DNA of 15,093 bases from contig CAZSTA010000078.1 of the NCBI GenBank assembly GCA_964609495.1, positions 1 through 15,093 of the forward strand, in the 5' to 3' direction. The stretch's first letter is position 1. Every line of letters starts with the position of its first letter. Both the position numbers and the translations under genes were made by a program. The DNA comes from an uncultured bacterium. GTDB lineage: Bacteria > CAZSTA01. Below the pieces are notes generated by a model. That model was given only the letters and a program-made list of their open reading frames with translations, did no database searches and was not told the origin of the DNA. Below are positions 2,914 to 14,213 of the stretch, piece by piece.

Positions 2914-3138
2914 TATTCGCTCATATTGGAGTAGCGTGCTTAGCTAAAGATGTCTTTATTTCATAATCACCCTCCCCTAAACCCCTCCCATCGAGGGAGG
3001 GGAAAATGGGAAGACAGTTCTATCTGGATGTCCCCTCTCCCCTCAGTGGGAGAGGGATAGGGTGAGGGTGAAAATTATTTCTTTCGCTCATTAGATCAGT
3101 CTAGCGCACCTTATGCAAATATGAGCGTTAATATTAGA
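2911..3138. repeat. A 228-bp MITE/REP-like structured element. Terminal inverted repeats TAATATTCGCTCATATT (2911-2927) and its reverse complement AATATGAGCGTTAATATTA (3118-3136) enclose an inner imperfect inverted repeat (2967-2984 / 3054-3071) and two GC-rich hairpins: CCCCTCCC-atcga-GGGAGGGG (2982-3002) and CCCTCTCCC-ctcagt-GGGAGAGGG (3033-3056).
   Basis: Nested inverted repeats read directly. The GC-rich poly-C/poly-G tracts stand out in an AT-rich intergenic region between ORF-133 and gvpN. A third partial copy of TTCGCTCAT lies at 3084-3092. Confidence 0.5.
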
Positions 3139-3152
3139 AGAGGAGGAGGATT

Positions 3153-4055
3153 ATGCAGGAAGAGCCCACAGTGCTTACTGCCCAACCAAGTGCTGATTTT
3201 GTAGAGACACCTTATATAAAGGAGCTAACAAGTCGGGCTATCGACTATATCAGAGCTGGTTTTCCCGTACACTTCAGCGGCCCAGCAGGGGTAGGAAAAA
3301 CTACATTAGCTTTACATATGGCTGCTAAGCTGGGCCGCCCGATTATATTAATCGGTGGAGACCACGAATTTAATAGTTCTGATCTAGTTGGTGGACTCTA
3401 CGGCTATCGTAGAAGATATACAAAAGACAATTTTATCCGCTCAGTTCTCAAGACTGATGAGAGTATGACTTCCCATTGGATAGACAATCGTCTCACGGTT
3501 GCATGTCAACGTGGACTTACCCTTATCTATGATGAGTTTACCAGATCACGACCAGAGGCAAATAACGTGTTACTCTCTATATTAGAAGAGAAGCTCCTTC
3601 CCCTGCCTGCCGCTAGAGGAGGAGAGAATTACTTAAGGGTACATCCCGATTTTGCAGCTATATTTACCTCTAATCCTGAAGAGTATGCTGGAGTTTACAA
3701 TAGCCAAGATGCCCTACGTGACCGTATGATAGCTATAGAACTGGGTAATTTTGATGAGGAAACAGAAGTTGCTATTACCCAGGCAAAATCTAAGCTTCCC
3801 TTAGAAGACGCCCAGCGGATCGTTAATCTGGTGAGAAAAGTTAGAGAGGTTAAATCGAACAAGCTTACCCCTACCGTAAGAGCATGCATTATGATGGGAA
3901 AGGTATTGAAGTTAAAGGGTGCATCAGCTTTCAGTTATGACCATACTTTTAAGCAGATCTGTCAGGATATCCTTATGCCTGAGATTCCCAAGGAGGAGAG
4001 AGAAAAAATAAGAGAGGTGATAGAGGATGCTCTGCTACTTAAAGGAGGATCATAG
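3153..4055 (+). CDS. gvpN: Gas vesicle AAA+ ATPase GvpN
   Basis: Strong SD AGGAGGAGGA precedes the start. Walker A FSGPAGVGKTTLALHMAAKLGRP and Walker B LIYDEF are present. Size (300 aa) and motif spacing are typical of GvpN/CbbQ-type AAA_5 proteins. Confidence 0.9.
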   Translation: MQEEPTVLTAQPSADFVETPYIKELTSRAIDYIRAGFPVHFSGPAGVGKTTLALHMAAKLGRPIILIGGDHEFNSSDLVGGLYGYRRRYTKDNFIRSVLKTDESMTSHWIDNRLTVACQRGLTLIYDEFTRSRPEANNVLLSILEEKLLPLPAARGGENYLRVHPDFAAIFTSNPEEYAGVYNSQDALRDRMIAIELGNFDEETEVAITQAKSKLPLEDAQRIVNLVRKVREVKSNKLTPTVRACIMMGKVLKLKGASAFSYDHTFKQICQDILMPEIPKEEREKIREVIEDALLLKGGS

Positions 4056-4236: not shown

Positions 4237-4429
4237 ATTATCCACCTTTGTGATCTAATGATACTTCGTATTAGCTCTGCATAACCGTATTTTGCGGAGC
4301 AAAACCAAATATTTTGGGATAGAGGAGGATATGTGTAACAAATTCTGCAAAAATTCTTATTAATAGTAGATTTTTGTATTTATGCTAAGCATAATTGAAA
4401 AATCTGTGAAAGTATAGAGGTGATAGTAT

Positions 4430-4927
4430 ATGGCTGAAAAGGAAGAGAAGGATAGAATTGAGATAGACTTTTTTGGGGGACTCTTTAAAGAGATTGGGAA
4501 CCTTATTGATCGTGCCTCCAAGATGGGGGAGGAAGGATTTGAAGAAACAGGGGAGATAAAATTCCCCAAGGGAGGTAAGGCAGTATATGGTATTAGTGTA
4601 AGGACTCTAGCAGGTAAGCCAGTAATAGAGAGATTTGGGAATGTGAAGGAGACCTCTAAAGGTCCAGTGGTGGAAGAGGTTAGAGAGCCAATCGTTGATG
4701 TTTTTGACGAAAAAGATCATATCCTTGTTATTGCTGAATTGCCCGGTGTATCGGAAGAGGATATAAAAATCGAAGTTTCTGGAGATGTTTTTAACCTTAC
4801 CGCCTCTAGTAAAGGTAGGAAATATGCTAAGGAGCTCCTTCTGCCGGCTAAAGTAAAAGCAGAGCCCCTTAAGAGTTCCTACCGGAATGGAATTTTAGAA
4901 ATTACATTGGAAAAGATAGAGAGCTAG
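4430..4927 (+). CDS. Hsp20/alpha-crystallin-domain small heat-shock protein (GvpH-like)
   Basis: SD GAGGTGA precedes the start. The alpha-crystallin-domain signature VDVFDEKDHILVIAELPGVSEEDIKIEV...YRNGILEITLEK is present. Haloarchaeal GvpH is Hsp20-family (established knowledge). Confidence 0.85.
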   Translation: MAEKEEKDRIEIDFFGGLFKEIGNLIDRASKMGEEGFEETGEIKFPKGGKAVYGISVRTLAGKPVIERFGNVKETSKGPVVEEVREPIVDVFDEKDHILVIAELPGVSEEDIKIEVSGDVFNLTASSKGRKYAKELLLPAKVKAEPLKSSYRNGILEITLEKIES

Positions 4928-5013
4928 TGTCAACTTACCCCTACTGATTGTAACACGAAGTATAGACTGAATCAGGAGAGGTTTCCGTGCCTGATTTAAG
5001 AGGAGGTAAATGA

Positions 5014-7194
5014 ATGGCTATGCGGGCAACCAGGGATGATGTAAAAGCATTAAACCTTCGTGTTGCTGAGGCAAAACCTAAAGATGTTGGAAGGGGGATT
5101 ATACGGATAGACCCCCAGGACTTTGAGAAGATAGGGGTAGATGTAGGAGATATTATTCAAATTGAGGGAAAGAGAAGGACCGTAGCTAAGGTTATGCCCG
5201 CTTATCCTGAAGACCGTGGCAAGTCCATTATCCAGATGGATGGAATTTTACGGAGCAATGCCCAGATCTCTCTTGATGAAAAGGTAACTGTTCAAAAGAT
5301 TAGAAGTTCCCCGGCAGATAAGATAGTAATAAGTCCGTTGACTCTGACAAGATTAAGCCGGGAGAGTGACACTAGATATATCGGCACCCTCCTGGATGGA
5401 TTGCCCCTAATAGAGGGGGATATTATTAGAGCCAATCTATTTGGGACTCGTAGTCAGGATTTTACAGTTCTTAGTACTATCCCAAAGGGGGTAGTGCTGA
5501 TTAACCCAGGAACTATAATTGAAGTGAAAAAAAAGGAAGAGATAGAGGCTAAAGGGTCCAAAATTTCTTACGAAGATATTGGGGGGTTAAGTAAAGAATT
5601 ACAGAAGGTTAGAGAAATGATCGAGCTTCCTCTGAAATACCCTGAGATTTTTGAGCGTTTGGGGATAGACCCTCCAAAGGGAGTATTACTCTATGGACCT
5701 CCTGGATGTGGTAAGACGTTAATTGCCCGTGCTGTAGCGAATGAGACCTCGGCCTATTTTACCCATATTACTGGTCCAGAGATTATGGGGAAATATTATG
5801 GTGAGAGTGAGAGCCGACTGAGAATGGTTTTTGCAAAAGCACAAACTAATACACCTGCTATTATATTCATTGATGAAATCGATGCTATTGCCCCCAAAAG
5901 AGAGGAAATGGGAGGAGAAAAACAGGTAGAGAGGAGAGTAGTTGCTCAGCTGCTCTCTCTAATGGACGGATTAGAGTCACGTGGTAATGTAATCGTTATT
6001 GCTGCAACGAATATTCCTAATTCTATCGATCCTGCTTTAAGAAGACCAGGGAGATTTGATAGGGAAATTGAGATCAGTATCCCTGACCAAAGGGGACGCC
6101 TGGAGATTTTGCAGATTCATACCCGTGGTATGCCTCTAGCTCAGGATGTAGATTTAGCTCAGGATATAGATTTAGAAAAGTTATCCCAGATCACCCATGG
6201 TTTTGTTGGTGCTGATTTGGAAGCGTTATGTCGTGAGGCAGCGATGAATGTATTGAGGAGGATAATGCCGGATATTGATTTTCAATGGTGTGGGATTCCC
6301 TATGAGACTCTATTACAGCTCGAAGTAACAATGGCTGATTTTGGAGAGGCTTTAAAGGAAGTAGAACCTTCAGCTATCAGAGAGGTCTTTATTGAGATTC
6401 CAAATGTGAAATGGGAAGATGTAGGGGGTTTGGGATATATAAAGCAAAAGTTAATGGAAGCTGTAGAATGGCCATCTAAATATTCTATTCTATTTGAGAA
6501 GGCAAAGATAAGACATCCGAAGGGAATTCTCTTTTCTGGACCTCCAGGTACAGGTAAAACACTAGTGGCTAAAGCATTGGCTAATGAAAGTGGGGTTAAT
6601 TTTATCTCAGTTAAAGGTCCTGAATTGATGAGCAAATATATAGGGGAATCAGAAAGAGGGGTAAGAGAGGTGTTTAGGAAGGCAAAACAGGCCAGTCCCT
6701 GTATTATCTTCTTCGATGAATTTGAATCGTTGGTCCCTGAGAGGGGGCCCTCCTCGGATTCTCAGGTTACAGAGAGGGTGATTAGTCAATTCCTTACCGA
6801 GCTCGATGGACTGGAAGAACTGAAAGGTGTACTAGTTCTAGCTGCTACTAATAGAAGAGACCTTATTGATCCTGCTATTTTAAGACCTGGAAGGTTTGAT
6901 TTTATTCTGGGATTTCCACTCCCTGATGAAAGCACAAGGGAAGAGATCTTCAAGGTTCATACGAGAGGAAAACCTCTGGCTCCTGATGTTAGTCTAAAAG
7001 GACTAGCTAGGAAGATGGATGATATGTCCGGTGCAGATATAGAAGCCATCTGTCGAGAAGCTTCTATGATAGCAATTAGAGAAGCTATTAGAGATGAATG
7101 TATGGATAATTTTCGGATCTCTCAAAAGTATTTTGATATGGCTATTGAATGGTTGAAGAGGCAGAAAGGAGAAATGGATGTCTTACCAGGGTAG
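5014..7194 (+). CDS. CDC48/VCP-like AAA+ ATPase with a CDC48_N domain and two AAA domains.
   Basis: The N-domain reads [27 protein letters not shown]. Walker A motifs are GPPGCGKT (D1) and GPPGTGKT (D2); Walker B motifs are IIFIDEID and IIFFDEFE. The protein is 726 aa, with SD AGGAGGT 6 nt upstream. The first 9 codons and RBS are shared with gvpJ. Confidence 0.9.
6139..6174 (+). repeat. In-frame 18-nt tandem duplication (gctcaggatGtagattta / gctcaggatAtagattta) encoding [12 protein letters not shown] in the D1-D2 linker of the CDC48-like gene.
   Basis: Seen directly; one mismatch between copies. Confidence 0.8.
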
Positions 7195-7924
7195 ATATTT
7201 CTATGGGATTATAGAGGAACCACAGTTTAAGAAATTTGAATTTTCTGGAGTGGGAGGGGAAGAGGTATATACAACTAGTTACCAGAATCTTTCCGCAGTT
7301 GTAAGTAATATTGAAGTTGGAGAGATAGATCCTATTAGAAAGAATGTACTTGCCCATACAGTAGTTCAGGATGAGGTTCTAAAAATTTATGATCTTCTTC
7401 CTATGGGCTTTGGAATGATAACCAATAGTGGGGAAGAGGTTATGAAGTTATTAGAGAAAAATTATCAGACGATTCTAAAAGAACTAAACCGACTTAAGGG
7501 TAAGATAGAGGGCGAGGTAAAAATCTTCTGGGACGAGGAGGCTATAATGAGAGAACTTCAGAACGAAAATCCGAAGTTCTCCAAGCTTAAAGCCAAGATA
7601 AGAGAAGCTTCATCTCCCGTTGAAGCGCAGAATCTACTTGCGGAAGCTGGTAGGTTGATAGAGCATATTGCTATGGAATGGAAGACTAAATATGCCGAGC
7701 GTGCCTATAATATCCTTAAAGACCTATCTATCGAGGCTAAGCTAAATGAGCCTTTTGGAGTTAAGAATATCCTAAATGCTTCTTTTCTGCTGGAAAGGAC
7801 TATGGAGAATAAATTTAAAGAAGAAATCTACCGATTAGATAGTGAGTATCAGGATAGACTAGATTTCAAATATGTAGGTCCCTTACCACCCTATAATTTC
7901 GTCAAAGTAAAACTGGAGCTGTAA
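7178..7924 (+). CDS. gvpF: Gas vesicle protein GvpF/GvpL family
   Basis: [10 protein letters not shown]...[17 protein letters not shown]...[26 protein letters not shown] matches the GvpF/L family pattern. The start overlaps the cdc48 3' end by 17 nt. Confidence 0.85.
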
Positions 7925-7925
7925 G

Positions 7926-8165
7926 ATGCTTGGACTCTCACTTTTATATGATATTTTTATAGGTGTTCCCTTTACCCTTGGAGTGAAAATACTGGAGAAA
8001 CTGAGGGATGAGATAGATAAGGAGCGCCTTATAACGGAAGATTCGATCAAGAAGAGGCTTCAGCAGCTACAACTATTGTTACAGGATGGAGAGATAAGTG
8101 AGGAAGAGTATGAAGAGTTAGAAGCTAAACTTATTGAAAGACTAAGAGCGGTAAAGGGAATATAG
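7926..8165 (+). CDS. gvpG: Gas vesicle protein GvpG
   Basis: A 79-aa protein with a hydrophobic N-terminus LLYDIFIGVPFTLGVKILEKL and the C-terminal EISEEEYEELEAKLIERL motif typical of GvpG. Confidence 0.8.
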   Translation: MLGLSLLYDIFIGVPFTLGVKILEKLRDEIDKERLITEDSIKKRLQQLQLLLQDGEISEEEYEELEAKLIERLRAVKGI

Positions 8166-8251
8166 TCAATGACCCCGCCCATGAAGGGCGAGGCTTGAGG
8201 GATCAAGCCTACGTTGACTAAGGGTAAGAGTTTCCGCCGACTAGTCTTTTT
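8163..8251 (+). promoter_or_regulatory. Structured intergenic element. A 7-bp outer inverted repeat TAGTCAA/TTGACTA (8163-8169 / 8214-8220) encloses two hairpins, CGCCC-atgaa-GGGCG (8176-8190) and GCTTGA-ggga-TCAAGC (8193-8208). The palindrome GACTAGTC followed by T5 lies at 8239-8251.
   Basis: Inverted repeats read directly. Same architecture as the 2911-3138 element (an outer inverted repeat around two GC hairpins). Probable RNA-stability or attenuator element between gvpG and gvpJ. Confidence 0.35.
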
Positions 8252-8274
8252 ATGAAAGTTAAGGAGGTAAATAA

Positions 8275-8652
8275 ATGGCTATGCAGGCAACCAGGGATGG
8301 ATCTTCTACCCTGGTGGATGTAATTGATCGCGTATTGGATAAAGGGCTTGTTATTAATGCTGATATCTGTGTTTCAGTAGCCGGGGTCGAACTTTTAGGG
8401 ATAAAGGTGAGGGCGGCTTTAGCTTCTTTCGAGACGGCAGCCAAGTATGGGTTAGAATTTCCTAGTGGAACAAATTATGAAACAGCTGCCTGGAAAGAGG
8501 TAAAGGTAGCTAAAGAGGAGTGTCCACAATGTGGAAAGAGGGTTCCTGCCGAAGAACTTATGAATGAAGGCTGTCCATGGTGTGGATGGATGAGTGCAAA
8601 GGCAAAGAAAGCTAAGCCTAAGCTAGCCCCTGAAATATCGGTAGAGGGATAG
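8275..8652 (+). CDS. gvpJ: GvpJ/GvpA-family protein with a C-terminal zinc-ribbon extension.
   Basis: N-terminus MAMQATRDGSSTLVDVIDRVLDKGLVINADICVSVAGVELLGIKVRAALASFETAAKYGL is the GvpA/J core. C-terminus CPQCGKRVPAEELMNEGCPWCGW carries four Cys arranged as CxxC...CxxC. Confidence 0.85.
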   Translation: MAMQATRDGSSTLVDVIDRVLDKGLVINADICVSVAGVELLGIKVRAALASFETAAKYGLEFPSGTNYETAAWKEVKVAKEECPQCGKRVPAEELMNEGCPWCGWMSAKAKKAKPKLAPEISVEG

Positions 8653-8655
8653 AAT

Positions 8656-9012
8656 ATGCCAGAGGATAAGAAAAATAGATTCAAAGGTTTATTGGGGCTT
8701 GATCCTACTTTAGGGGTAGGAGGCAAACTTTTAGACTATGTAGAAGAAGCACATGAAAAAGAAAAGACATTAAATAGTGATTACTATGCCTTTTGCCCAA
8801 AATGCGGTAAGAGACAGGTTAAGGTAAGTTTAATTGAAAATGGATGCTTCCTCTGTGGCTGGAAAGGAAAAGAAGAGGAGATAGAGAAGGCAAAACCAGG
8901 AAACGTAGAAGGAACTTCAGGATATAAAAGTATCTGCCCTAATTGCGATGCTTCTGTCATTACGGAGGAATTTCTGGAAAATGGGTGCTGGAAGTGTGGA
9001 TATAAAAAATGA
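8656..9012 (+). CDS. Small protein carrying two zinc-ribbon modules.
   Basis: The two modules are CPKCGKRQVKVSLIENGCFLCGW and CPNCDASVITEEFLENGCWKCGY. This is the same 'ENGCxxCGW' module as at the GvpJ C-terminus. SD GAGGGA precedes the start. Confidence 0.6.
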   Translation: MPEDKKNRFKGLLGLDPTLGVGGKLLDYVEEAHEKEKTLNSDYYAFCPKCGKRQVKVSLIENGCFLCGWKGKEEEIEKAKPGNVEGTSGYKSICPNCDASVITEEFLENGCWKCGYKK

Positions 9013-9454
9013 GGGTAATTTGACTCAATTTCTTGAAAATCTTGATGAAAAGAGCCGGGCTTTACTCTGGTATCTGTGGTGGCATAGGCATGCCAATATA
9101 TCTGAATTAAGGGAAGTTATAGATGTTTCAAGTGATTTTGAGGTTTTACATAGGTTGAAAGAAGTCATAAATGAGAAAGCCAAGAAGCTCTTAGGTAAGT
9201 TGATAGTAAACTTTGAGCCGTCGAAAATAGATCCTTATACTGGAGAAAAGGTCTTTTTTAGCTGGTGGCTTCTGGATGAGGAAGATAGTACTCTTTTAGG
9301 TGAGAATAAGCAACTGGTTGATATATTCAATGAGAAAGATAATATTACTATAATTGCCCAACTACCTGCTACAGTAGATTTTACCTCTCCAGAAATACAA
9401 TTTAAGAATAGTATATTGAAAATAAAACTAAAGAAGGTAGAGAAGAATGACTGA
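8981..9454 (+). CDS. Degenerate alpha-crystallin (Hsp20-like) paralog with a W-rich N-terminal domain. The start is uncertain: the ORF is open from 8948, ATG 8981 is chosen because GAGGAA lies 9 nt upstream, and it overlaps the previous gene out of frame.
   Basis: The C-terminal half, VDIFNEKDNITIIAQLPATVDFTSPEIQFKNSILKIKLKK, parallels the VDVFDEKDHILVIAELPGV...NGILEITLEK of the 4430 gene. The N-terminal half, LWYLWWHRHANISELREVIDV.., is unassigned. Confidence 0.5.
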   Translation: MGAGSVDIKNEGNLTQFLENLDEKSRALLWYLWWHRHANISELREVIDVSSDFEVLHRLKEVINEKAKKLLGKLIVNFEPSKIDPYTGEKVFFSWWLLDEEDSTLLGENKQLVDIFNEKDNITIIAQLPATVDFTSPEIQFKNSILKIKLKKVEKND

Positions 9455-9929
9455 AAAAGACAAAGATGAAGAAAAAATAGGTGGAGTAACTCAGGGAGTC
9501 CTTCACGGATTAGGGAGAATTATCCCTGGCTTTGAAGAAATTATAAAAGGTTTAGAAAAATCTACCGCTTTCCAGGAAAGATTAAAAGTGGCTAATGAAG
9601 AGATAGAAAAGAGGTTAAAAAAAGCCCCAACAAGGGGTAGGAATAATGTCATTCCACCTGAGAATACACTAAAGGTGAACCAAAACGCTGAGAGAGAATT
9701 GTTGATAGATATATTTGATGAAGGAAGTTATCTAAGGATAATTGCTGAGATGCCAGGTGTGGACGAAAAAGAGATAAAAATTGAAATAAAGGATAACCTA
9801 CTTATACTTTCTACCCCATCTGCTAGGTATAAGTATTACAGAGAGATAGAGCTACCCTGTTTGGTAAAAAAGGAATTTAACTTAGTTTACAAGAATGGTA
9901 TATTAGAGATCAAATTGGAGAAGAGATAA
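9447..9929 (+). CDS. Hsp20/alpha-crystallin-domain protein (second GvpH-like paralog)
   Basis: IDIFDEGSYLRIIAEMPGVDEKEIKIEIKDNLLILSTP...YKNGILEIKLEK is present. ATG 9447 overlaps the upstream stop at 9452-9454. Confidence 0.8.
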   Translation: MTEKDKDEEKIGGVTQGVLHGLGRIIPGFEEIIKGLEKSTAFQERLKVANEEIEKRLKKAPTRGRNNVIPPENTLKVNQNAERELLIDIFDEGSYLRIIAEMPGVDEKEIKIEIKDNLLILSTPSARYKYYREIELPCLVKKEFNLVYKNGILEIKLEKR

Positions 9930-9932
9930 TAA

Positions 9933-10256
9933 ATGGCTATTGATATTGATGCAGATAACCTCAAACAGGGTGTTTTGGGTTTGGTAATCGCCCTTGTGGA
10001 AATTATTAGGGATGCCCTGAAGATTCAAGCATTTAAAAGGGTGGAAAGCGGCATTCTTACCGAGGAAGAATGTGAGAGGTTAGGAGAAGCACTTATGGAT
10101 TTAGATATTGCAATCGAGGAGATAAAGGAAGAGCAGGGGATTACAGAATCTGTTCAGGCTATAAGGGATGGATTAGATGAGATTGTCGATGATGTAGTAG
10201 ATAGAATGGTTAACCCTGAAAGATGGAAAGAAGAGGCGAAAGAAAAAGGAATATAA
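9933..10256 (+). CDS. gvpK: Gas vesicle protein GvpK
   Basis: LGLVIALVEIIRDALKIQAFKRVESGILTEEECERLGEALMDLD matches the GvpK family pattern. Confidence 0.85.
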   Translation: MAIDIDADNLKQGVLGLVIALVEIIRDALKIQAFKRVESGILTEEECERLGEALMDLDIAIEEIKEEQGITESVQAIRDGLDEIVDDVVDRMVNPERWKEEAKEKGI

Positions 10257-11525: not shown

Positions 11526-12617
11526 ATGGAACCTACTAGAGATACACATGCTACATTAGTAGACCTCTTGGATAGAATTCTAGATAAAGGCTTAATACTT
11601 AATGCGGATCTAATTATCCATATAGCTGGCATCCCTCTTTTGGGAGTTAACCTAAAGGCTTGCCTTGCTGGAATGGAAACGATGCTAAAGTATGGTATCT
11701 GGCAAGACTGGGATGAGGCACAGAGGGTGATTGCCACTGAAGAAGAGAGGAAGAAGAAAAAAGTTCCCTTAGCTCCACAGGAAGATGTCTTCCTAAAGAT
11801 ATTTGCCTCCCTGTGGTACAGTAAAGGTATCTATCATACCCGGAGACCGGGGCATCTATACATCACCGATAGAAGGATATTCTTATTTAGAAAGGAACCA
11901 GCTGAAGTACTATTTCATTGTATGTATAAGGAGATAAAAGGAATCAGTACTGAAAGAAAGGCAAATATTACTGGCAAAGAGACGGATTATCTCTATCTAT
12001 GGCTTAACTCAGGAGAGATCGTTAAGTTGCATCCGACAGATGCTCAGCTTGTTAGAGAGACAATAGAAGAAAGAATGAAATTACTGGGGCTAGAGTTGAA
12101 GAAAGATATCCCCCTTCCTATACTCGATGAGGTAGCAATAAAGTTTTTATCTGAGGAAGAAGAAATTATCCATTCGGGAAAGATATCTTATCTAGTGGCT
12201 GAATCAAGACCGGGGGGTATTACCACCGAGGTATGGAAGCCGGGACATTTATATCTGACTGATAGGAGGTTAGTCTGGTGGTACGATTTCGATGGCAGGA
12301 TTGCTTCTGAATTACCTCTTGAGAAAATTCTGGGAGTTGAAATAAAAAGAAAAGATTTGGGTGATATGTTAAAGAATAAATCTGTTTTAGATTTGGCTTA
12401 TAAGAATGGTAGTAATAGAATTGCCTCTTTCTCTAGTAGTACGGAGGGACTAAATGAGTGGGAAAAAATAATAGGTGAGGTTATGATAGAATACGACAAG
12501 ACAGAAGAGTGCCCCAGGTGTGGCAGAAGGGCACCTATAGATAAGCTGCTTAAAGAAGGCTGTTCAATCTGTGGCTGGGTAAGCCCCAGGCTTAGAAAAA
12601 AGGAGATAGAAGCTTAA
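11526..12617 (+). CDS. Fusion protein combining an N-terminal GvpA/J/M-family domain, two GRAM/PH-like repeats and a C-terminal zinc ribbon.
   Basis: N-terminus [57 protein letters not shown] is the GvpA-family core. The two repeats are ..RRPGHLYITDRRIFLF.. and ..WKPGHLYLTDRRLVWWY.., matching the GRAM/bPH 'G.LYLT..RL.F' signature. C-terminus is CPRCGRRAPIDKLLKEGCSICGW. Confidence 0.8.
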   Translation: MEPTRDTHATLVDLLDRILDKGLILNADLIIHIAGIPLLGVNLKACLAGMETMLKYGIWQDWDEAQRVIATEEERKKKKVPLAPQEDVFLKIFASLWYSKGIYHTRRPGHLYITDRRIFLFRKEPAEVLFHCMYKEIKGISTERKANITGKETDYLYLWLNSGEIVKLHPTDAQLVRETIEERMKLLGLELKKDIPLPILDEVAIKFLSEEEEIIHSGKISYLVAESRPGGITTEVWKPGHLYLTDRRLVWWYDFDGRIASELPLEKILGVEIKRKDLGDMLKNKSVLDLAYKNGSNRIASFSSSTEGLNEWEKIIGEVMIEYDKTEECPRCGRRAPIDKLLKEGCSICGWVSPRLRKKEIEA

Positions 12618-13480: not shown

Positions 13481-13693
13481 GCAAATAGATTTAGTTCTTC
13501 ATATATTCCTAAGGAGGAGATAACCGATCTAGCGGGAGATATGTCCTTAGAAGAGAGATTAGAATTATCTGAGAAAAAGATAATCGAGGGCGCTCTAAAA
13601 GAGGTGGGAGGAAATCAAAGCCGGGCTGCCAAGATGTTAGGTATATCCCGATATAAATTGCGTTATCGAATGCAGAAGTATGATCTACTATAG
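13481..13693 (+). pseudogene. C-terminal fragment (Fis-type HTH_8) of a sigma-54-dependent NtrC-family transcriptional activator.
   Basis: ..MSLEERLELSEKKIIEGALKEVGGNQSRAAKMLGISRYKLRYRMQKYDLL* matches the C-terminal HTH of NtrC/NifA-type activators. No AAA sigma-54 domain is found upstream in any frame. ATG 13541 has a GGGAG motif immediately upstream, so a 50-aa stand-alone product is possible but unlikely. Confidence 0.55.
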
Positions 13694-14080: not shown

Positions 14081-14213
14081 AGAAACTTCCCCTCGGTACT
14101 TTGCAGGATATATAATATGATATAATATTAACATTTTCTATCGTGTTGCCTTTGCAATATAACAATCGCAGAGGAACTCTTTTGATTAAAGGTATGATAT
14201 TTGCTCTTTATAG
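14081..14213 (+). repeat. Right copy of the flank direct repeat. It carries the same extended -10 TGATATAAT at 14118-14126.
   Basis: See the 1-157 entry. Confidence 0.85.

Follow-up and report, generated by a model that had tools for sequence, protein, structure and literature searches.

Ectopic (non-allelic) short-patch gene conversion and template-switch copying occur within bacterial genomes, and classical conversion homogenises paralogues. We compared with these processes a contig of 15,093 nucleotides (nt) from an uncultured, Dehalococcoidia-like bacterium (CAZSTA010000078.1, assembly GCA_964609495.1), the whole of which is called the window below, and in particular a 38-nt block that is present twice in its gas-vesicle (gvp) gene cluster, at the start of cdc48 and at the start of gvpJ. 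The comparison indicated that the block is very probably a lineage-specific ectopic copy of a short patch, which replaced the native start of cdc48. Such a copy resembles ectopic gene conversion in that the tract is short and near-identical, the transfer one-way, the two loci near each other, the borders sharp, the donor ancestral and the recipient chimeric. It differs from classical conversion in that the genes are unrelated, the tract measures only ~38 nt, flanking homology is marginal at best and what was replaced is a start codon together with a Shine-Dalgarno (SD) sequence. Read in this way, the event is a fresh instance of a known process, ectopic short-patch copying. The features concerned are the following.

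5001..5038, + strand: presumed recipient copy of the block, with SD AGGAGG (5001-5006), a 7-nt spacer that includes an in-frame TGA (5011-5013), ATG 5014 and the first eight cdc48 codons with one further base (MAMRATRD).
8262..8299, + strand: presumed donor (native) copy of the block, with a relic of the gvpG 3' end (GGA GGT AAA TAA) as SD (AGGAGG, 8262-8267), the gvpJ ATG (8275) and the first eight gvpJ codons with one further base (MAMQATRD).
5014..7194, + strand: cdc48, a CDC48/VAT-type double-AAA ATPase of 726 amino acids (aa); Pfam CDC48_N, CDC48_2, two AAA and two AAA_lid_3.
8275..8652, + strand: gvpJ-like gene, 125 aa, with a GvpA/J/M-family domain (Pfam PF00741, E=2e-16) and a C-terminal zinc ribbon.

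The original prediction had described two near-identical 38-nt stretches distinguished by two purine transitions, and this description was confirmed. The copies AGGAGGTAAATGAATGGCTATGCGGGCAACCAGGGATG (5001-5038) and AGGAGGTAAATAAATGGCTATGCAGGCAACCAGGGATG (8262-8299) share 36 of their 38 bases and differ by two A/G transitions (5012/8273 and 5024/8285), the longest exact run common to both being 14 nt. A pattern search of the window allowing up to three mismatches returned these two sites only, and a second match to the block was found in none of 200 dinucleotide-preserving shuffles. Pairwise alignment of the 200 nt around each site showed identity from AGGAGG through GGGATG with sharp edges on both sides; local alignment of the flanks of the two copies was not significant (p=0.25). 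The open reading frames (ORFs) start at ATG 5014 (726 aa, MAMRATRDD...) and ATG 8275 (125 aa, MAMQATRDG...), and the block is made up of 13 nt of leader and 25 nt of coding sequence. The shared coding start was thus present as predicted, and its extent was eight codons and one base rather than nine codons.

Comparison with related clusters was used to polarise the two copies. The closest relative of the window is locus L001 (with L002 and L004), at ~27% nucleotide divergence. In these three loci CAGGAGGTAAATAAATA stands before gvpJ, the first letters of which are ATGGCTATGCAA. The gvpJ leader of L001, AGGAGGTAAATAAATAATGGCTATGCAA (AGGAGGTAAATAAAT..ATGGCTATGCA), is the same as in the window, and its GGA GGT AAA TAA forms the last three codons and the stop codon of gvpG, which ends 3 nt before the gvpJ start. 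Because these codons end gvpG in L001, the AGGAGGTAAATAA of the window can be read as fossil sequence from the 3' end of an ancestral gvpG; the cdc48 copy also carries this fossil, as ...TAAATGA. Orthologues of gvpJ lie 3' of gvpG in L001, L006, L008 and L090. The orthologous proteins start with MPLQATRDE/Q, MALQATRDE, MAMQATRDD or MAMEPSRD, which gives the N-terminal consensus M-[AP]-[LM]-[QE]-[AP]-[TS]-[RK]-[DNE], and the [ST][RK]D motif was found in 29 of 58 distinct GvpJ/M-like N-termini versus none of 22 GvpA-like ones. By the shared L001 leader, the orthologue starts and these counts, the block is native to gvpJ.

The same start is foreign to the relatives of CDC48. A MAMRATRD start was found in none of 119 full-length CDC48 relatives, in none of 85 CDC48s of the fetched gvp clusters, and not among the short CDC48 N-terminal fragments retrieved with a 90-aa query. 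In every close relative the cdc48 start is located 9 codons before the conserved LRVAEA (in L008, TTG GCA ACT GAA ATC AAA GCG TTA ACA), versus 14 codons in the window, where only the last five (GTA AAA GCA TTA AAC) look native. When the metagenome collection was scanned with the degenerate pattern ATGGCNATGCRNGCNACNMGNGAYG, most of the 22 matches fell in unrelated high-GC ORFs, and apart from unrelated ORFs the motif was found at gvpJ genes only, those of L089, L090 and L108; cdc48 of L090 starts MAEQTAKVFLRVAEAK. At both variable positions the derived state is that of the cdc48 copy, because the gvpJ copy keeps the state of its orthologues (TAA; CAG/CAA = Gln). The two changes are a non-synonymous one (Q4R) and one in the spacer between SD and ATG. 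The comparative data fix the direction of the presumed copying as gvpJ to cdc48 and showed that, among the clusters sampled, the block is confined to this lineage. The tract is native at the donor and absent from the recipient in sister lineages, as expected of an ectopic copy, and the proposal that cdc48 captured a gvpJ-type translation-initiation region is therefore supported, since the block is native to gvpJ and foreign to CDC48 relatives.

Two other resemblances were rejected. Repeat family D6 has a third member within gvpK (10150-10173, 79% identical), which was considered as another patch and is native, SVQA[IV]RDGLDE being invariant in GvpK orthologues. The MAVTT start of CDC48 in L005 and L006, which is like that of GvpA, was attributed to chance, with only 8 nt shared.

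An in-frame TGA (5011-5013) stands directly before ATG 5014, and the only in-frame ATG, GTG or TTG codons upstream of the conserved CDC48 N-domain are ATG 5014 and ATG 5020, both within the block. Because of this TGA and of the lack of an in-frame start outside the block, the block would be the sole SD and start codon of cdc48; the reading frame showed that it holds the predicted SD and the only in-frame start codons. With AGGAGG and a 7-nt spacing, this is the strongest SD context in the cluster and is shared by cdc48 and gvpJ only; the match was judged against the general bacterial anti-SD, the 16S rRNA of the organism not being on the contig. The likeness to SD-led initiation regions and to start-codon turnover lies in AGGAGG, the 7-nt spacer, ATG and unstructured early coding sequence, and in a start five codons upstream of that of the orthologues. 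The difference from usual start-codon turnover is that the cdc48 start appears to have been imported ready-made from another gene of the operon, not recruited from existing upstream sequence, and that it brought along the relic of the stop codon of a third gene. By its A-to-G change, the cdc48 copy has also gained an extra ATG (5010), 3 nt after the SD, which opens an out-of-frame mini-ORF of nine codons (MNGYAGNQG*, 5010-5039) overlapping the cdc48 start; so short a spacing probably prevents its use.

In the history that we propose, ~38 nt comprising the gvpG 3' end with its SD, the gvpJ start codon and gvpJ codons 1-8 would have been copied onto the start of cdc48, 3.26 kb further upstream. 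The copied patch would have overwritten the native start codon and the first three to four codons of cdc48, would now serve as its translation-initiation region and would have added a net tail of five residues, presumably disordered, ahead of the CDC48 N-domain. In the simplest history, the tight ancestral junction between hsp20 and cdc48 was disrupted in this lineage by a 73-nt spacer, and the copying may have accompanied or repaired this disruption. Candidate routes would be a microhomology-mediated template switch, illegitimate conversion or co-movement with a spacer element. The two copies differ at 2 of 38 positions (95% confidence interval 0.6-18%), a value well above the 0.06% by which the window and L108 diverge and well below the ~27% from L001. 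Because it lies between these two, the copying would have occurred after the split from the sampled relatives and would not be brand new.

Several points weigh against this history. The cdc48 copy of the block is known from a single assembly. Apart from L108, which stops short of cdc48, the comparison genomes have at most ~73% nucleotide identity (81% for the CDC48 protein). Flanking homology of the kind that normally primes RecA-type conversion was not found next to the two copies. Since the copy is not brand new, some constraint on it is possible. Finally, we infer the initiation of ribosomes at ATG 5014 from the sequence only.

A parallel patch was found in the closest relatives of the window. 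It measures 49 nt, is 100% identical between L001 6263-6311 and 7298-7346 (also in L002-L004) and has unrelated flanks. It consists of the 3' end of a gene (...REEKLYFPVMGE*) with the stop codon, followed by the SD of the next gene, and splits the homologue of the window ORF 1449-2504 in two. Like the block of the window, it is a short repeat that includes an SD, has unrelated flanks and lies within the same type of gvp cluster; unlike it, it comprises a 3' end and an SD instead of an SD and 5' codons, concerns different genes and has no differences between its copies. Because L001-L004 hold this patch, short patches that rewrite gene boundaries recur in these clusters.

The original prediction had offered, as a use for the identical leader, matched translation efficiency or a common target for a small RNA (sRNA) or an RNA-binding regulator. 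We weighed the corresponding explanation, namely that the leader is a selected cis-regulatory module, either a common site for an sRNA or an RNA-binding protein or a device locking the translation rates of CDC48 and GvpJ. The SD, spacing, start codon and early codons (eight in all) are the same, so similar intrinsic initiation is plausible. The 66-nt windows around the two starts had similar folding energies (-10.1 and -9.7 kcal/mol), weaker than those of shuffles (z +0.89 and +1.05). With 2 of 38 positions changed, the copy is older than population diversity and still 95% identical. However, when the 220 nt around the cdc48 start were compared with each start of a GvpA/J-family gene in all fetched loci with both, the shared block was absent from the ~55 clusters concerned, whose best ungapped scores were 7-12 versus 32 in the window; the sole higher score (23, in L075) came from a CTGACAA tandem repeat. 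The Rfam search of the whole window placed nothing on the block and a closer search of the cdc48 region found nothing, the full leaders folded insignificantly (z +0.34 and -1.44), a complement (k-mer) search of the window found no antisense partner beyond chance, and the cdc48 copy already has Q4R and the change in the SD-ATG spacer. A selected module of this kind is very improbable. The proposal of an sRNA or RNA-binding regulator gained no support from the searches for an Rfam match, a significant fold or a complement within the window, and neither did that of a device for matched expression, the block being unique to this contig among the ~55 clusters; what the comparison did bring out is a lineage-specific scar of gene-conversion type, which forms the sequence part of the refutation that the prediction had set itself. 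Similar initiation strength of cdc48 and gvpJ is probably a by-product of the shared sequence. A 13-nt match at the gvpK start (AATAAATGGCTAT, 9928-9940) was rejected as an antisense partner; it is on the same strand, in a similar TAA-ATG-GCT context.

A patch kept because it is useful was considered as well. The GvpJ octapeptide could serve CDC48 as a docking tag or mimic at the partner of GvpJ, or the initiation region could place CDC48 and GvpJ under one trans-acting translational regulator. We regard this as very improbable; if the docking tag were real, the unfoldase would be brought to the usual partner of the GvpJ N-terminus during gas-vesicle assembly.

The sequences upstream of the two copies were compared with L001, and the features involved are these.

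4928..5000, + strand: spacer S1, from the hsp20 stop to the block; starts GTCAACTTACCCC; hairpin AATCAGG/CCTGATT (4970-4996).
8166..8261, + strand: spacer S2, from the gvpG stop to the block; 54 nt at its start (8165-8218) fold as a three-way junction; identical in L108.
7926..8165, + strand: gvpG, with its 3' end shortened by S2; ends ...AVKGI* versus ...AVREYNKNSGGK* in L001.
4430..4927, + strand: gene of the hsp20 family, directly upstream of cdc48; adjoins the cdc48 start in the closest relative (TAA-C-GTG).

Comparison of the window with L001 by blastn showed three collinear blocks of homology (window 4422-4926, 5043-8162 and 8262-9423). Window-specific sequence at 4927-5042 (S1, the block and 4 nt) replaces 16 nt of L001, and window-specific sequence at 8163-8261 (S2) replaces 12 nt, the homology to L001 resuming exactly at 8262. 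The intergenic gaps are correspondingly larger, with 86 nt versus 1 nt in L001 between hsp20 and cdc48 and 109 nt versus 3 nt between gvpG and gvpJ. Searches with S1 and S2 by blastn-short and nhmmer against all 110 fetched loci (1 Mb) matched the window and L108 only, and by these searches both spacers are lineage-specific. No right-hand homology beyond GAT(G) was found next to the block copies, and a consensus scan for promoters and terminators found nothing on the + strand of S1 or S2.

These spacers are the ground for an alternative in which a mobile or repeat element brought the block along. S1 and S2 would then be small HEARO/IS200-IS605-like or repetitive extragenic palindromic (REP)-like copies, and the 38 nt would have moved as a 3' flank (transduction) or been converted through homology of the elements. 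HEARO is an RNA associated with IscB nucleases (RF02033 / omega-RNA; PMC9755519). The 54-nt three-way junction at the 5' end of S2 matched positions 1-52 of the 211-nt HEARO model of Rfam (29-30 bits; 29 bits with E=1.4e-4 in the 211-nt search), and S2 starts, as in HEARO, with a stem enclosing two hairpins (GUCAA..CCCC..GGCUUG..CAAGCC..UUGAC). The match covers a quarter of the model, is far under the gathering threshold of 83 bits, has no IscB ORF beside it and concerns the spacer, not the block. Because a clearly spurious mir-188 match had a comparable E-value in the same search, we treated the likeness to HEARO as a lead only, and 8165-8218 may have been left behind by a mobile element or may resemble HEARO by chance. 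The Pfam search found no IscB (RuvC/HNH) domain in any ORF of the window, the ORF downstream of S2 being gvpJ, and a search at the Rfam gathering threshold found no HEARO in 139 kb of the closest clusters.

A start similar to that of S2, GTCAACTTACCCC, directly follows a TAG stop in S1, GAG(G)TTTCCG is present in both spacers, both adjoin the block and both are missing from L001, and their global collinear alignment was marginally above that of shuffles (p=0.0125). Their local similarity, however, was not significant (p=0.25), S1 had no Rfam match at E<=10, and the GTCAAY-N3-CCCC pattern is about as frequent by chance. A related cluster (L005/L006) has been invaded by a Y1 transposase with REP-like palindromes, but neither an IscB nor a transposase ORF was found in the window and no further copies of the spacers were found in the 1 Mb of related loci. 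Joint movement of spacer and block predicts spacers as alike as the block, and they are less alike. We therefore hold a mobile element to be an unlikely carrier of the block and prefer a short-patch copy from gvpJ.

In the L005/L006 cluster (e.g. L006 1999-2450 and 5534-7101), the Y1 transposase is accompanied by multiple REP-like palindromes and by 340-360-nt repeats between gvpF and gvpG, and a ParE-like toxin pair is located just upstream of cdc48. In the window itself, the 239-nt spacer before gvpN (2914-3152) has a very stable fold (-90 kcal/mol) owing to GC-rich palindromes (CCCTCCC..GGGAGGG, CCCTCTCCC..GGGAGAGGG); it gave the spurious mir-188 match and may be an insertion of the REP type or a miniature inverted-repeat transposable element.

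The window is a metagenome-assembled contig, and an artefact of assembly or binning would make the 5' end of cdc48 chimeric, so that the repeat would not exist within one genome. The first 55 nt of the window are an exact repeat of 14081-14135, which suggests a graph boundary, and the cdc48 copy was found in no other assembly. On the other hand, the two block copies share no more than 14 consecutive bases and differ at two positions, and because of this a k-mer graph could neither join nor make the repeat; the run is shorter than typical assembler k-mers, which makes an origin by mis-join unlikely. The cdc48 copy is located between unique sequences, and its frame leads smoothly into a CDC48 that is full-length and domain-complete. 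For the gvpJ side there is confirmation from L108, an independent contig from the Joint Genome Institute (sample Ga0315545, 1577 nt, window 7710-9286, 99.94% identity) that reproduces the gvpJ copy and its upstream spacer. An artefact is hardly credible as the source of the block.

The repeat at the end of the contig is part of a larger duplication, in which the region upstream of gvpA (1-159) recurs 3' of the cluster (14081-14213) as 55 nt of exact and 53 nt of 85% identity. The exact part is AT-rich and has TATAAT-like boxes; ~200 nt downstream of it begins a short ORF (from 14335), which was read by eye as a putative helix-turn-helix (MerR-like) protein. A length of 55 is a common maximum for assembler k-mers. 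Exact direct repeats of 55 nt were also seen in L019 (8042/9119), L023 (4865/5020), L029 (9272/9427) and L059 (10699/10854), three of them spaced 155 nt apart, and these look like assembler artefacts rather than biology.

If the copying took place as proposed, the window offers a well-polarised natural case in which a gene regained its ribosome-binding site and start codon from an unrelated neighbour in its own operon. Annotators should regard the N-terminus of this CDC48 as chimeric. The case also calls for caution in reading short intra-operon repeats as regulatory motifs, since here the comparative data show a scar. The understanding of gas-vesicle biology is unchanged by it, and the presence of CDC48 as a standard member of gvp clusters may merit more attention than the block.

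The cdc48 product has the architecture of CDC48/VAT AAA+ proteins, with CDC48_N and CDC48_2 followed by two AAA modules, and proteins 77-81% identical to it are named 'CDC48 family AAA ATPase' by their sources. Its N-terminus is five residues longer than that of these relatives (706-723 aa). An exact-match look-up of the protein returned nothing, and in the protein collection it forms a cluster of its own, from a 15,093-nt NCBI contig. Pfam detected only CDC48_N, CDC48_2, AAA and lid domains in it and no Gas_vesicle domain (PF00741), so its overlap with GvpJ is limited to the 8-residue tail that precedes the GvpJ domain. Where the source was named, the nearest CDC48 proteins (77-81%) came from metagenome-assembled genomes (MAGs) of Chloroflexota or Dehalococcoidales, and their contigs have the same gene order.

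A CDC48 ORF was called in 76 related genome loci, of which 69 had gvp genes on the same strand; in these 69, hsp20 was found within 700 nt upstream of cdc48 in 39 and gvpF/L was the next gene downstream in 54. The taxa in the record titles include Dehalococcoidia, Atribacterota, Nitrospirota, Desulfobacterota, Planctomycetota, Acidobacteriota, Omnitrophota and others. The gvp clusters of many anaerobic phyla regularly include a double-AAA ATPase of the CDC48/VAT type (window 4430-7924; loci L009-L088). In the titles and abstracts returned by a literature search for 'gas vesicle' and 'CDC48', which were mostly haloarchaeal, none dealt with a bacterial gvp-cluster CDC48.

Short tandem-repeat arrays, mostly of 7 nt (CTGACAA, GACTTTG/GACATTG, GAAGATT, AATGACC and others), were observed at more than one site in several gvp clusters, mostly of Desulfobacterota-type MAGs by record title. 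They are located in L075 (5929/13131), L032 (5195-5269/8179), L040 (1727-1838/10043), L046 (3318/5951) and L071 (1805/6349). The arrays are intergenic in L032 and L075, those checked against gene calls, and some lie just upstream of cdc48.

The gvp cluster of the window lies on the + strand. By Pfam, it comprises gvpA (418-624), three unassigned ORFs, gvpN (3153-4055) and then, consecutively, hsp20 (4430-4927), cdc48 (5014-7194), gvpF (7178-7924), gvpG (7926-8165) and gvpJ (8275-8652). These are followed by a zinc-ribbon ORF, a 168-aa ORF without assignment (8948-9454), an Hsp20-like ORF, gvpK, gvpL, a GvpJ-GRAM-zinc-ribbon fusion (11526-12617) and gvpO. In the fusion (363 aa), a GvpJ-type domain is joined to GRAM/bacterial-PH-like repeats and a C-terminal zinc ribbon, and L008 (14347-15390) has a Gas_vesicle-domain protein of similar size (347 aa) at the matching position. 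The SD and start codon of this second gvpJ-type gene lie between the arms of a 10-nt inverted repeat (11492-11501/11534-11543, ATCTCTGGTA / TACTAGAGAT, 90% complementary), whose 3' arm is within the T-R-D codons and which could sequester the start. The ENGC..CGW zinc-ribbon motif is found at four places in the cluster. In the otherwise non-coding 1.3-kb stretch after the cluster, an isolated ORF of 50 aa (13541-13693) looks by eye like the C-terminal Fis-type helix-turn-helix of a sigma-54 activator (...GGNQSRAAKMLGISRYKLRYRMQKY) and may be a gene fragment.

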